A DNA stretch of 64,000 nucleotides from Alphaproteobacteria bacterium (GCA_045613285.1 JAZLAQ010000030.1:28290-92289); one strand, 5' to 3'. Shown: positions 24,987 through 31,833, numbered from the stretch's first letter. The notes: generated by a model from the letters alone, not told the origin. Translations and numbers: made by a program.

Positions 24987-26375
24987 ATGGAAAATACAGG
25001 AAAAATTATTGCCGTCAGCGGTAGTGTTGTTGAAGTCTTTTTTGATAAAAAATTACCGGCAATTTTTAACGCCTTAAAAACCGGTGAAGATTTATCCTTG
25101 ACACTGGAAGTCCAAGGTTATATTGATGAAACAACCGTTAGAACTTTGGCTATGGGTGGTACACAAGGTCTTTCCCGTGGAATGAAGGTTGTTGATACTG
25201 GACGCCCGATTGAAGTACCCGTTGGGAAGCAAACACTGGGGCGGATGTTTAACGTATTTGGTCAGACAATTGATGGTGGTAAAAATTTAAAAAATCCTGA
25301 ATTAAAATCTATTCACGCTGAACCAGTCCCTATATCCGAATTAAAAGTATCATCTGAAATCTTTATCAGTGGTATTAAAGCAATTGATTTACTTGCCCCT
25401 ATGGAACGAGGAGGTAAAGCCGGCCTATTCGGTGGTGCGGGTGTCGGAAAAACAGTTTTGATTACCGAAATGATAAACAACATGGTTGGCCGTTACGAAG
25501 GTGTCAGTATTTTTGCCGGTATCGGAGAACGTTCTCGTGAAGGTGAACAACTATATCGTGAAATGCAAGAAGCCGGCGTTTTAAGTAAAACGGTTATGAT
25601 TTTCGGACAAATGAATGAAGCGCCCGGAGTCCGTTTTCGAGTAGCTTTATCAGCTCTAACAATGGCAGAATATTTCCGAGATGAAAAGAAACAGGATGTT
25701 TTATTGCTGATTGATAACATTTTTCGTTTTATTCAAGCAGGTTCAGAAGTGTCTGTTTTATTGGGACAAATACCTTCACGAGTCGGCTATCAACCGACAT
25801 TAGGAACAGATATTGCTGATTTAGAGGAACGTATTTCCAGCACAAAAGACGGTGCTATCACTTCTATTCAAGCTGTCTATGTTCCAGCAGATGATTTTAC
25901 TGATCCTTCAGCCACACATACTTTTGCGCATTTATCATCAACGATTGTGCTATCCCGAGCCCGTGCGGCGCAAGGCTTATACCCTGCTCTGGATCCATTG
26001 GCTTCCGGTTCAAATATGCTGACTCCCTTAATCGTTGGAGAACGTCATTATCGTGTTGCAACAGAAGTTCGCAGAACATTGGCACAATATGAAGATTTAA
26101 AAGATATTATAGCCATGTTGGGTTTTGACGAATTACCTGAACATGATCAACAAACCGTTCTAACTGCCAGAAAATTGGAACGCTTTTTAACACAACCCTT
26201 TTTTACAACCGGACAATTTACAGGAATGACAGGAAAATCCGTTGATTTGGCCGATACGATTTCAGGCTGTGAAAGAATACTTGCTGGTGAATTTAATGAT
26301 TTAACCGAAAATGATTTCTATATGATTGGTACGGTCGATGAAGCACGCCAGAAAGCAAAAGGAGAAAACGTCTAA
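24987..26375 (+). CDS. atpD: N-type ATPase beta subunit (462 aa), first gene of the operon
   Basis: Walker A GGAGVGKT, Walker B and DELSEED-region homolog (DELPEHDQQ). It precedes epsilon and the membrane-sector genes, the inverted order relative to canonical F-type operons. Confidence 0.9.
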
Positions 26376-26786
26376 ATGGAAATGAAACTCCGTATTTTTT
26401 CACCTATAGGCGTTATTTTGGAAACACCGGTTCAACAAATTGATTTTGAATCCATTAGTGGTTTTTTCACTTTACTTCCTAAGCATACGGATATCGTTTC
26501 TGCATTAAAAATCGGTATTTTAACCTATAAAACAAACGATACGATTGCCTATGTTGCTTGTAATAAGGGTGTTTTGGTTAAAAAAAATGATACGGTCTTT
26601 GTTTCAACTAAAATGGCAATTTTAGGAACTGATTTAAAGGAACTGGAAACAAAAATAACTACTGATTTCAAAATGATAGAAGAAGAACGTAAAGAAATAA
26701 ATACAGCTATGGCAAAATTGGAAATCGGTCTGGCAAAAGGTATTATGTCATTAAAAAATATAGGAGAAAACAATGTCGGAATTTGA
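26376..26786 (+). CDS. atpC: ATP synthase epsilon subunit (136 aa)
   Basis: Size, beta-sandwich plus C-terminal helical layout, and its position 0 nt after the atpD stop. Confidence 0.8.
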   Translation: MEMKLRIFSPIGVILETPVQQIDFESISGFFTLLPKHTDIVSALKIGILTYKTNDTIAYVACNKGVLVKKNDTVFVSTKMAILGTDLKELETKITTDFKMIEEERKEINTAMAKLEIGLAKGIMSLKNIGENNVGI

Positions 26787-27087
26787 AAAAGAAAATAAAA
26801 AAACGGCAACTGTTTTAGTCCACAAAGCTAAAGTTATGCAAAAAAGAGAAAATCGCACATTCTTTTTTAATGCTGGTGTTTTGAGTGTTTACGGTTGGCA
26901 GTTATCCATTCCGGTTATATTAGGTGTTATTCTCGGTCGTTTTTTGGATAAAGCTTTTCCTGATACAATTTTTTCATGGACTTTCAATCTTATTTTAATC
27001 GGATTTGCAATAGGCGTTTTTAACGCTAATTATTGGATACATAAAGAAGGCATTATCCCACAACAAAAAAAGAAAGGCAAGAAATGA
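26773..27087 (+). CDS. atpQ: Small two-TM membrane protein at the AtpQ position of N-ATPase operons (104 aa)
   Basis: Two predicted TM helices and a basic C-terminus. Overlaps atpC by 14 nt. Sits between epsilon and the AtpR-like gene exactly as in N-ATPase operons. Confidence 0.6.
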   Translation: MSEFEKENKKTATVLVHKAKVMQKRENRTFFFNAGVLSVYGWQLSIPVILGVILGRFLDKAFPDTIFSWTFNLILIGFAIGVFNANYWIHKEGIIPQQKKKGKK

Positions 27088-27416
27088 ATATAAATCTAGC
27101 TGAATTTATTAAATTTTTTCTTATTGGTATTACCTGTGGATTGGTCTATTTATATTTACTATGGCAAACGGTTAAAGTATTACCAAATGTTAAAAAGAAA
27201 GGTGTTTTCTTATTTACTTCTATGTTTTTAAGAATATTCTTAATGCTTTCTCTGATAGTCGTTTTTGCCAACAATGATTTGAATAAATTTTTAATTATGT
27301 GTTTAGGCTTTATCTTAATCCGTTTCTTCGTTTTAAGATTTACTCGTTTTGGTGGATGCTACGCAACAAGTGATAAACAATTAAAAAAATCTTTTCAAGG
27401 TCAGAGAAAAAAATGA
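27084..27416 (+). CDS. atpR: AtpR/AtpI-like small membrane protein with intramembrane arginines (110 aa)
   Basis: Three hydrophobic segments containing Arg (FLRIFLM, ILIRFFVLRF). 4-nt overlaps on both sides. Positioned immediately before the a subunit. Confidence 0.6.
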   Translation: MNINLAEFIKFFLIGITCGLVYLYLLWQTVKVLPNVKKKGVFLFTSMFLRIFLMLSLIVVFANNDLNKFLIMCLGFILIRFFVLRFTRFGGCYATSDKQLKKSFQGQRKK

Positions 27417-29410: not shown

Positions 29411-29422
29411 AAAGGAAAATAC

Positions 29423-30943
29423 ATGTTAAAAGGTGCATCAAAAGAAGCAACAAAAGTCATCAAGGAAGCTATATCCAAAACAAAAAATGATTTAAAGGTA
29501 TCTGAAGTTAGTACCATCCGTTCTATTTCCGCTGGCACGGCAGAGATATCTGGTCTTTCAAAAGTAAAAATGAACGAATTACTGACATTTCGTGGTGATA
29601 CTGTTGGTATGGTTCAAACTCTTTCTGTTGATAGTGTTGGTGTTGTTTTTCTTACAAATGCAGATCACCTAAAAGCCGGCGATCGTGCAAAACGCACACA
29701 TCAGGTTTTAAGCATTCCTGTTGGAGAAACCCTATTAGGTCGTGTTATCAATCCGTTAGGTCAACCTCTGGATAATAAGGGCATTATACCTACAACGGAA
29801 ACATTACCGGTAGAACAAGACTCGCCTCCGATTATGCATCGGGCACCTGTGGATACCCCCTTACAAACCGGATTAAAAGCTATAGATTCTTTTACCCCTA
29901 TCGGTCGGGGACAACGAGAGTTAATTTTAGGTGACAGACAAACTGGGAAAACAGCGATTGCCTTGGACACAATTATCAATCAAAAGGATACTGGTGTTAT
30001 CTGTATTTATTGTGCTATCGGACAAAGGGCTTCCGGTACGGCACGCGTTATTACGGATTTAGAAAAACATGGTGTTATGGATAATACCATCGTTGTTGTA
30101 GCTTCAGGTGATGACGAAGCCGGCTTACAATATATAGCCCCTTATGCTGCTACATCCATCGGGGAATGGTTTATGGCAAAAGGGAAAGATGTCTTAATTA
30201 TCTATGATGATTTAACTGCTCATGCACGGGCTTATCGTCAGATGTCTTTGTTATTACGGACACCACCTGGACGAGAAGCCTTCCCAGGAGATATTTTTTA
30301 CATACACTCTCGTTTATTGGAACGTTCTACACATTTGCGACCGGAATATGGTGGTGGTTCTTTAACTTCATTACCAATTGTTTCCACAGAAGCCGGTAAT
30401 ATATCTGCCTATATTCCGACAAATATTATTTCCATTACGGACGGACAGATTTACCTATCCACTTCCCTGTTCCAAAAAGGAATTATGCCGGCCATCGATA
30501 CGGGACGCTCTGTTTCCCGTGTCGGGGGTGATGCTCAATTACCGGCTTATCGTAATTTAGTTGGACCATTGAAATTGTTTTTCTCACAATTTGAGGAATT
30601 AGAATCTTTTGCAAAATTCGGAACTCAAATGGATGGAGAAACAGCCAAGCGGTTAAAACGGGGACGTGCTATACGTTCTGTTTTACAACAGATACAATAT
30701 GTCCCTATGCCGGTAGCTGAACAAATTTCCATCTTTTTAGCAACAAATGCCGGCTTATTAGATGATGTTAAGGAAAGTTTGATACCAAAAGCTCAAGAAA
30801 TTATTATTAAAACACTACATCAATCTTTTTCAGCTGAGATTAAAGCTATTTTAAAGAAAGAAAAATTATCACAAGAAGCAAAAGATAAGATGTTAGATGC
30901 CTTTCAAAAAGCACTTAATAACGAAAAAGGACTATATGTATAA
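29423..30943 (+). CDS. atpA: N-type ATPase alpha subunit (506 aa)
   Basis: Walker A GDRQTGKT and alpha-type nucleotide-binding domain motifs. Confidence 0.9.
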
Positions 30944-31833
30944 TGAGTTTAGAAGCCTTAAATAAACGGATAAAAACGACAACCGATTTACGGGATATTG
31001 TTAGTACAATGAAGATGTTATCGTCTGTCAGTATAGGTCCTTATGAAAAGGCTTTAATATCCTTAAACGAATACGGTAAAACAGTTAAGACAGCCTTTAT
31101 CGGTTTAATGAAAGATGATCGGTTTTATTATACACCCCAGCGATTAAAATCAAATTCCCCCAAAACAATCGCTATTGTTATCGGAACGGATAATGGTCTG
31201 GTCGGTCGCTTTAACCGAGATGTCATAACCTACGCCCGTAAAGATTTATCAGAAAATAGTCTAGATAAAGAAGTAACCTTTATTTGTATCGGGAAAAGAT
31301 TAGGACTGTTGGCTGATTCGGCAAAGGTAAAAGTAGCAGCAACTTACCCGATTATGAATTCTCTAAAAGAAATCACAACCATATCATCTATGGTTCTAAT
31401 GAAAATCAATGAACTGATACATGCAGAAAGGGCAGAACAGGTTTTTATTTACTATACAATAAAAAAAACCGGTGAATCACAACGGGTAGAAAAAGTACAA
31501 TTAATGCCCCTTCCCCAACAAGATATGATTTCCTTTAAAAAAGAAAAATGGACAGGACGTACTTTACCTCTTATTGCTGATGATAAAGGAAGTTTGTTTA
31601 CTGCTCTGATACATGAATATCTGACCGTTGTTTTAAGCGGTTCTTTGACATCTTCTCTGGCGGCTGAGCATTATACACGTATGGTCAACATGCAACAGGC
31701 AGAGAAAAATATAGATGAGTCCTTAGAAGCCATGAATATGGATTACCAACAAATTCGTCAAACCAGTATTACGGATGAACTGATTGATATCGTATCCGGT
31801 GCCGAAAGTCTGAAAAAGAAAAAATCAACTTAA
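30943..31833 (+). CDS. atpG: ATP synthase gamma subunit (296 aa)
   Basis: Typical gamma length. The N-terminal helix ([29 protein letters not shown]) and C-terminal helix are conserved. The start overlaps the atpA stop by 1 nt. Confidence 0.85.
   Translation: MSLEALNKRIKTTTDLRDIVSTMKMLSSVSIGPYEKALISLNEYGKTVKTAFIGLMKDDRFYYTPQRLKSNSPKTIAIVIGTDNGLVGRFNRDVITYARKDLSENSLDKEVTFICIGKRLGLLADSAKVKVAATYPIMNSLKEITTISSMVLMKINELIHAERAEQVFIYYTIKKTGESQRVEKVQLMPLPQQDMISFKKEKWTGRTLPLIADDKGSLFTALIHEYLTVVLSGSLTSSLAAEHYTRMVNMQQAEKNIDESLEAMNMDYQQIRQTSITDELIDIVSGAESLKKKKST

Follow-up and report, generated by a model that had tools for sequence, protein, structure and literature searches.

An N-type rotary ATPase operon at a conserved housekeeping locus of uncultured gut Alphaproteobacteria

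The stretch of DNA analysed here, 64,000 nucleotides (nt) of an alphaproteobacterium (Alphaproteobacteria bacterium, GCA_045613285.1 JAZLAQ010000030.1:28290-92289) and hereafter called the window, carries an N-type (N1No) rotary ATPase operon of the gene order atpD-atpC-atpQ-atpR-atpB-atpE-atpF-atpA-atpG. The nine open reading frames (ORFs) occupy positions 24987–31833 of the plus strand and are all intact, as judged by ORF calling together with Pfam and NCBIfam scans. The locus adds an example to the known N-ATPase family and does not constitute a novel type of system. In the usual picture, N-ATPases are mobile pumps for Na+ or H+ that accompany the real ATP synthase as accessories; their physiological role is debated. 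In widespread uncultured Alphaproteobacteria of the animal gut, the N-ATPase described here behaves as a stable set of core genes, and its Na+ site follows the textbook. For the locus itself, the sequence examined is the 64-kb window; for its relatives, it is the 10 kb on either side of each operon.

The nine genes and their assignment to the N-type

The genes of the operon are tightly packed. Those for beta and epsilon abut directly, atpC and atpQ overlap by 14 nt, atpQ and atpR as well as atpR and atpB by 4 nt—the ATG of atpB overlapping the stop codon of atpR—and atpA and atpG by 1 nt. The remaining junctions are gaps of 16 nt (atpB–atpE), 14 nt (atpE–atpF), and 12 nt (atpF–atpA). Each of the nine proteins aligns approximately end to end with its family models, hence there is no pseudogene among them, and E-values as low as 1e-224 exclude chance as a source of the family assignments (Table 1). 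The catalytic motifs are kept: the P-loops of alpha (GDRQTGKT) and beta (GGAGVGKT), the GERSREG motif of beta, and the stator Arg of subunit a, which lies within the motif FRLYGNMLSG. The operon is flanked upstream by accC, accB, and tyrS and downstream by an HU-family gene (hup) and accD. The gaps to its direct neighbors are 42 nt (tyrS–atpD) and 75 nt (atpG–hup), across which co-transcription with tyrS and hup is possible. A scan for promoters and terminators yielded counts no higher than in shuffled sequence, so that the boundaries of the transcription unit are not callable; scans for tRNA genes and Rfam families gave no matches in the whole 64-kb window. The initial annotation, made from the sequence of the window, had described nine tightly coupled genes between tyrS and hup-accD, with beta and epsilon ahead of the Fo genes, two small membrane proteins between epsilon and a, and 12 nt between b and alpha; ORF coordinates, family assignments, and gene calls agree with this description throughout.

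Table 1. Genes of the N-type ATPase operon, with positions in the window and family matches (aa, amino acids)
Gene	Product	Length	Position	Strand	Family match
atpD	beta (catalytic) subunit, N-type	462 aa	24987..26375	+	TIGR03305 alt_F1F0_F1_bet 745 bits (E=2e-224)
atpC	epsilon	136 aa	26376..26786	+	PF02823 E=6.5e-14; TIGR03166 alt_F1F0_F1_eps 106.4 bits (cutoff 100.1)
atpQ	small membrane protein ('gene 1')	104 aa	26773..27087	+	PF09527 ATPase_gene1 E=3.3e-10, 40.3 bits (cutoff 26.6)
atpR	N-ATPase-specific membrane protein (urf2)	110 aa	27084..27416	+	PF12966 E=1.4e-15, 58 bits (cutoff 26)
atpB	subunit a	297 aa	27413..28306	+	PF00119 E=1.3e-45; TIGR03306 altF1_A 262 bits; NF004481 263 bits (cutoff 227)
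atpE	subunit c, two-carboxylate Na+-type ion site	99 aa	28323..28622	+	TIGR03322 alt_F1F0_F0_C E=5.7e-35
atpF	long b subunit	257 aa	28637..29410	+	PF00430 aa 7-123 (E=7e-13); TIGR03321 alt_F1F0_F0_B (E=1e-40)
atpA	N-type alpha	506 aa	29423..30943	+	TIGR03324 alt_F1F0_F1_al 720 bits (E=1.4e-216)
atpG	gamma	296 aa	30943..31833	+	TIGR03323 alt_F1F0_F1_gam 212 bits (E=1e-62); PF00231 E=1e-52

The N-type models of NCBIfam rank first for five subunits, namely beta (745 bits compared with 654 bits for the canonical TIGR01039), alpha (720 compared with 630 bits for TIGR00962), gamma (212 compared with 130 bits for TIGR01146), b, and c. For epsilon and subunit a, a generically named model scores as high as the N-type model or higher. 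The two small membrane proteins are recognized as AtpQ and AtpR, with PF09527, TIGR02230 (64.4 bits, cutoff 46.7), and PF12966 above their cutoffs and TIGR03165, the NCBIfam model of AtpR, below. The arrangement corresponds neither to the canonical operon atp(I)BEFHAGDC nor to the alphaproteobacterial pair atpHAGDC and atpIBEFF', and a separate atpH is absent. A genome scan with the beta subunit yielded 80 related loci (L numbers below), and the order atpDCQ(R)BEFAG is kept in 80 of 80 where the contig is long enough. In a neighbor-joining tree of beta, calculated without bootstrap and rooted on two canonical F1 betas (Bacillus TA2.A1 and mammalian mitochondrial), the window and L001–L024, the gut clade of the following text, group together as a single clade among the N-type betas.

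The alternative that the host lineage rearranged its own canonical F1Fo genes into this order, and that the enzyme is not of the N-type, is hardly tenable. The generic F-type models do score high for beta and alpha, and gut-clade betas share approximately 52 to 58% identity with canonical betas, compared with approximately 50 to 55% for most other N-type betas. Against this stand the first rank of the N-type models, the presence of AtpQ and AtpR, the missing atpH, and the position of the clade in the tree, and, in addition, the nearest relatives outside the clade, which are all N-type operons of unrelated phyla and to which the window beta is 62 to 67% identical compared with 57 to 58% for canonical betas. 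Taken together, these features effectively refute a rearranged F1Fo operon. The N-type call of the initial annotation is borne out by gene order, AtpQ and AtpR, the absence of atpH, model ranking, nearest relatives, and the two-carboxylate c subunit alike.

The absence of a delta subunit, also claimed in the initial annotation, holds for genes and fails for domains. Between 28600 and 29430, where a miscalled atpH might have been hidden, ORF calling and Pfam and NCBIfam scans find no separate ORF with similarity to delta, and the N-type call is not refuted. The only OSCP/delta signal of this region lies inside the b ORF, at aa 168–245 (PF00213, E=3.8e-5, 24.3 bits, cutoff 22.3), and the delta model TIGR01145 matches the same C-terminal domain (E=7.8e-7). 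As judged from these matches, the long b subunit, which aligns with positions 1–244 of the 246 of TIGR03321, is a b–delta fusion with a delta/OSCP-like C-terminal domain. Such a fusion is an established feature of the family: The C-terminus of long N-type AtpF was aligned with delta by Dibrova et al. 2010 (PMC2881411), and the ProAD survey (Litvin et al. 2025; 45,555 bacterial genomes, GTDB v202) describes N-ATPases as having 'delta absent or fused with b'.

The operon shares its defining features with the N-ATPases described by Dibrova, Galperin & Mulkidjanian 2010 (for example, those of Methanosarcina, Aphanothece halophytica, and marine bacteria): the order atpDCQRBEFAG with AtpQ and AtpR, the lack of atpH, a long b with a delta-like C-terminus, and a c subunit with Glu in both helices and the full set of Na+ ligands. 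It features two differences compared with these systems. They occur as patchy, strain-specific islands, whereas the operon of the window is a fixed housekeeping locus of native composition with neighbors conserved clade-wide. In addition, subunit a of the window and its closest subclade carries an N-terminal extension of approximately 65 aa (27413–27610) with two hydrophobic stretches. This extension is found only in the window and L001–L006, whose a subunits have 283 to 337 aa; elsewhere among the loci, N-type a subunits mostly measure approximately 225 to 250 aa. With the extension, the stator may have gained two transmembrane helices.

AtpR features three transmembrane segments, called by eye from the sequence, and a pair of membrane-embedded Arg residues (in FLRIFL and LIRFF) that is largely conserved in the alignment of the gut clade. 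No relative of AtpR with a solved structure was found. The conserved intramembrane Arg residues of AtpR were stressed as a family trait by Dibrova et al. 2010 (PMC2881411), and the Futiania paper, citing these authors, proposes that these residues interact with the carboxylates of subunit c.

Two further peculiarities concern beta and c. The DELSEED-loop region of beta (26130–26150) reads DELPEHD in place of the canonical DELSEED or DELSDED. Almost all betas of the gut clade carry FDELPExDQ, and L023 carries DELPAHD; elsewhere, the loop features EELS and EQLS variants in other N-type betas and DELSDED in the sister loci L057 and L068. Subunit c has 99 aa compared with 92 aa in most gut-clade relatives because of a short C-terminal tail past the conserved NPF motif.

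Relatives and inheritance of the locus

In a protein search with beta, more than 100 clusters at 77 to 98% identity are found among the matches listed, that is, the best 120. The few named clusters read 'MAG: F0F1 ATP synthase subunit beta [Alphaproteobacteria bacterium]', where MAG stands for metagenome-assembled genome; the assignment to the N-type hence improves on the generic label 'F0F1 ATP synthase' that named relatives carry in public records. The loci L001–L024, with betas 73 to 90% identical to that of the window, are named Alphaproteobacteria or Pseudomonadota save for one mislabelled bin, and those names that give a source point to rumen, abomasum, cecum, or rectum samples. Below 67% beta identity, the loci belong to unrelated phyla and taxa (Chloroflexota, Desulfobacterota, Planctomycetota, Thiothrix, Methanoperedens, and others). 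The host belongs to an uncultured, low-GC lineage of gut and rumen Alphaproteobacteria, presumably the GTDB order RF32, going by the MAG names UBA6324, UBA6411, and UMGS1296. The mislabelled bin is L017 (CAVCSV010000020.1): It is labelled 'Limosilactobacillus gorillae ... cleanbin', and its N-ATPase operon is approximately identical to that of L018 (UBA6411); this public bin is probably mislabelled or contaminated.

The neighborhood of the operon is conserved across the clade. The pair hup-accD lies immediately downstream in L002, L004, L006, L007, L009–L012, L023, and L024, and upstream of the operon in L005; it is not seen downstream in L003 and L008, where the contig ends, and in L001 neither gene occurs in the approximately 4.6 kb downstream. 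The upstream genes accC-accB(-tyrS) are also kept in the closest loci. The composition of the operon matches that of its surroundings: Its GC content is 0.345 compared with 0.367 in the 36 flanking genes, its GC content at third codon positions (GC3) is 0.266 compared with 0.267 ± 0.034, and its relative synonymous codon usage correlates with that of the flanks at r = 0.96, compared with 0.98 for one half of the flanks against the other. The operon is indistinguishable from the flanking genes in GC content and codon usage, and with neighbors that are kept in related species, its description in the initial annotation as embedded among housekeeping genes is sustained.

Between the window and L001–L010, beta is 85 to 90% and alpha 68 to 84% identical; for L001–L006, the corresponding values of the neighboring genes, where found, are 82 to 87% for accC and 78 to 83% for accD. 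Conservation is expressed here as amino-acid identity since sequences this far apart should be saturated at synonymous sites. The level of beta compared with accC and accD indicates strong selection on the operon, and the conserved neighbors together with native GC3 and codon usage mark it as old and vertically inherited in this lineage and not as a recent island. The operon was present before the clade diversified and was then inherited vertically under strong constraint. The signs of lateral mobility, namely compositional anomaly and patchiness among close relatives, are not seen, in contrast to the N-type operon of the Futiania paper, which is strain-specific. Across phyla, the distribution of the family over the 80 loci is patchy, and an ancient transfer into the ancestor of the clade is likely.

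Among close relatives, the site directly upstream of atpD (23682–24944 in the window) holds one of two forms of tyrS that are not orthologs of each other. One form, a TyrS of approximately 420 aa with 77 to 81% identity, is found in the window, L002, L005, L006, and L008. The other, of approximately 400 to 405 aa and 27 to 28% identical to the first, is found in L001 (8760–9977), L003 (8291–9562, 423 aa as called), L004 (8718–9935), and L012 (7919–9118). The betas of the loci with the alternative TyrS are still 79 to 90% identical to that of the window, and L002 and L004, which differ in their TyrS, are sisters in the beta tree. As far as sequence and position can tell, it looks as if tyrS was replaced in place by a distantly related version.

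Coupling ion, mechanism, and function

Subunit c was aligned with the Na+-binding c-rings of Fusobacterium nucleatum (3zk1) and Ilyobacter tartaricus (1yce). At the I. tartaricus positions 32/65/66/67/70, it carries E/E/S/T/Y and, hence, the complete two-carboxylate Na+-binding motif GEG...ESTxxY. It is identical to the F. nucleatum ring at all ligand positions and differs from that of I. tartaricus only at position 32 (E for Q). Within the gut clade, the ligands at positions 32/63/65/66/67/70 read EMESTY or EIETSY in most members, with few single-residue variants. The habitat of the two reference enzymes is likewise anaerobic and rich in Na+. They are, in contrast to the N-type operon of the window, of the canonical atpIBEFHAGDC type, with a separate delta and without AtpR, and serve as primary ATP synthases. 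Coupling to Na+ is the best prediction for the enzyme of the window.

The following mechanism is derived from what is established for F-type and N-type enzymes. The alpha3–beta3 head with its gamma/epsilon rotor would be held by the stalk of the long b, the delta-like C-terminal domain of which would stand in for a separate delta subunit. Hydrolysis or synthesis of ATP in alpha3–beta3 would be transmitted by gamma and epsilon to rotation of the c-ring against the stator Arg of subunit a, and each site of the ring—Glu of helix 1 together with Glu-Ser-Thr...Tyr of helix 2—would bind Na+. AtpQ and AtpR would act as small accessory or assembly proteins of the membrane. The enzyme would work mainly in the direction of ATP-driven Na+ extrusion and would thereby build up a sodium-motive force in the Na+-rich gut.

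A hint at the metabolism of the host is given by a gene at 53248–55329 (plus strand), which encodes a 693-aa protein built like ADP-forming acetyl-CoA synthetase, with domains of the CoA-binding, succinyl-CoA-ligase-like, and ATP-grasp_5 types. Such an enzyme, unusual in Alphaproteobacteria, is indicative of fermentation with substrate-level phosphorylation; the protein suggests that energy may be conserved in this way, and ATP spent on ion pumping would be in keeping with that. The literature views N-ATPases as ATP-driven pumps alongside F- or A-type enzymes (Dibrova 2010, Schulz 2017, ProAD). This view, the putative fermentative enzyme, and the Na+-rich gut favor an ATP-driven Na+ pump, and the preferred reading, with a probability of approximately 0.6, is a complete, functional N-type operon that encodes a predicted Na+ extrusion pump, probably in company with a second rotary ATPase whose genes lie elsewhere in the genome.

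Several points weigh against this reading. Strict cutoffs of N-type NCBIfam models are missed by beta (745 of 752 bits), alpha (720 of 750.5), gamma (212 of 282), b (140 of 225), and AtpR (45.8 of 55.5), a pattern that marks the clade as divergent from the seed sequences. The fixed synteny and core-like behavior of the operon are atypical of a mobile accessory N-ATPase. Ion specificity and pumping direction are both predictions, and the sequence-based prediction of Na+ coupling failed for the N-ATPase of Burkholderia pseudomallei, which is devoid of the Ser-Thr pair seen here. Finally, no other ATPase genes occur in the 64-kb window or in the 10-kb flanks of the relatives, where inspection of these genomes ended, so that the companion ATPase is taken from the literature.

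The case of B. pseudomallei bears directly on an H+-coupled enzyme that would, despite its Na+-like motif, serve pH homeostasis. The N-type ATPase of this species shares the operon type and a two-carboxylate c with the window; its ring is a c17 ring with the residues E30/E61/T62/M63/Y66, was found H+-selective by experiment contrary to the prediction, and keeps its second Glu protonated (Schulz et al. 2017). In addition, ProAD predicts approximately half of all N-ATPases to be of the H+-type. The site of B. pseudomallei (E/E/T/M/Y) is, however, without the Ser66-Thr67 pair, whereas the c subunit of the window carries the ESTxxY signature with the ligands of F. nucleatum, and ESTxxY is the criterion used in the Futiania paper to split Na+ from H+ N-types. 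Coupling to H+ is distinctly improbable.

Somewhat less improbable, and still unlikely, is that the gut and rumen clade has lost its canonical ATP synthase and that the N-ATPase is its only rotary ATPase, acting either as the primary Na+-coupled ATP synthase, with a sodium-motive force supplied by pumps such as Rnf, Nqr, or decarboxylases whose genes lie outside the window, or as the one enzyme that generates the membrane potential of a purely fermentative cell. Such a role would fit a fixed housekeeping locus with host-like codon usage that is conserved over approximately 24 species-level MAGs, a beta subunit as conserved as, or more conserved than, neighboring essential genes, and the lack of further ATPase genes in the stretches inspected. 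With a large ring such as the c17 ring of B. pseudomallei, even a very low sodium-motive force could suffice for the enzyme to make ATP instead of pumping. There is one published precedent for an N-ATPase as sole rotary ATPase, the genus T78 of the Chloroflexota (ProAD): likewise an anaerobic lineage with a stably present N-type enzyme, for which N-only status is documented. The enzyme of T78 is predicted to be of the H+-type, whereas that of the window is predicted to be of the Na+-type. On the other side, T78 is the only genus singled out as N-only in ProAD, which makes N-only status here mildly less probable; text and supplement of that survey discuss several gut lineages and do not mention this one. 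According to Dibrova et al. 2010 (PMC2881411), an N-ATPase is 'always the second', and Mahendrarajah 2023 likewise places N-ATPases next to a genuine F- or A/V-type enzyme; the count table of the 2023 paper includes no gut Alphaproteobacteria. Moreover, no Na+-pumping respiratory or decarboxylase genes are found in the 64-kb window. No bioenergetic description was found in the literature on gut Alphaproteobacteria under the labels RF32 and CAG-239. The closeness of gut-clade betas to canonical ones was considered as a sign of a primary enzyme and is not relied on, since the gradient given above is small and the loci were picked by similarity to the window. If N-only status were true, this lineage would follow T78 as the second to rely on an N-ATPase alone; it would be the first to do so with an enzyme of the Na+-type and the first in the class that gave rise to mitochondria, and nature would have provided a system in which to examine whether enzymes of the N-type can serve as primary ATP synthases.

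Other genes of the window

Several further genes of the window stand out. ORFs of 125 to 446 aa without a Pfam match at E<=1e-5 lie at 9403–10369, 18427–19781, 33095–34876, and 46484–47695. A Cys-rich protein of 129 aa with a signal-like N-terminus is encoded at 33095–33484 and adjoins a 446-aa ORF on the opposite strand. On the minus strand, at 58753–61947, lies the gene of a 920-aa protein, the sole Pfam match of which is to HEAT repeats at its C-terminus; it is located immediately upstream of the gene of a 140-aa protein with a cyclic-nucleotide-binding domain. At 47757–48853 (plus strand), a split-ChrA pair is made up of two adjacent half-size genes of the chromate-transporter (ChrA) family, the products of which have 186 and 179 aa.

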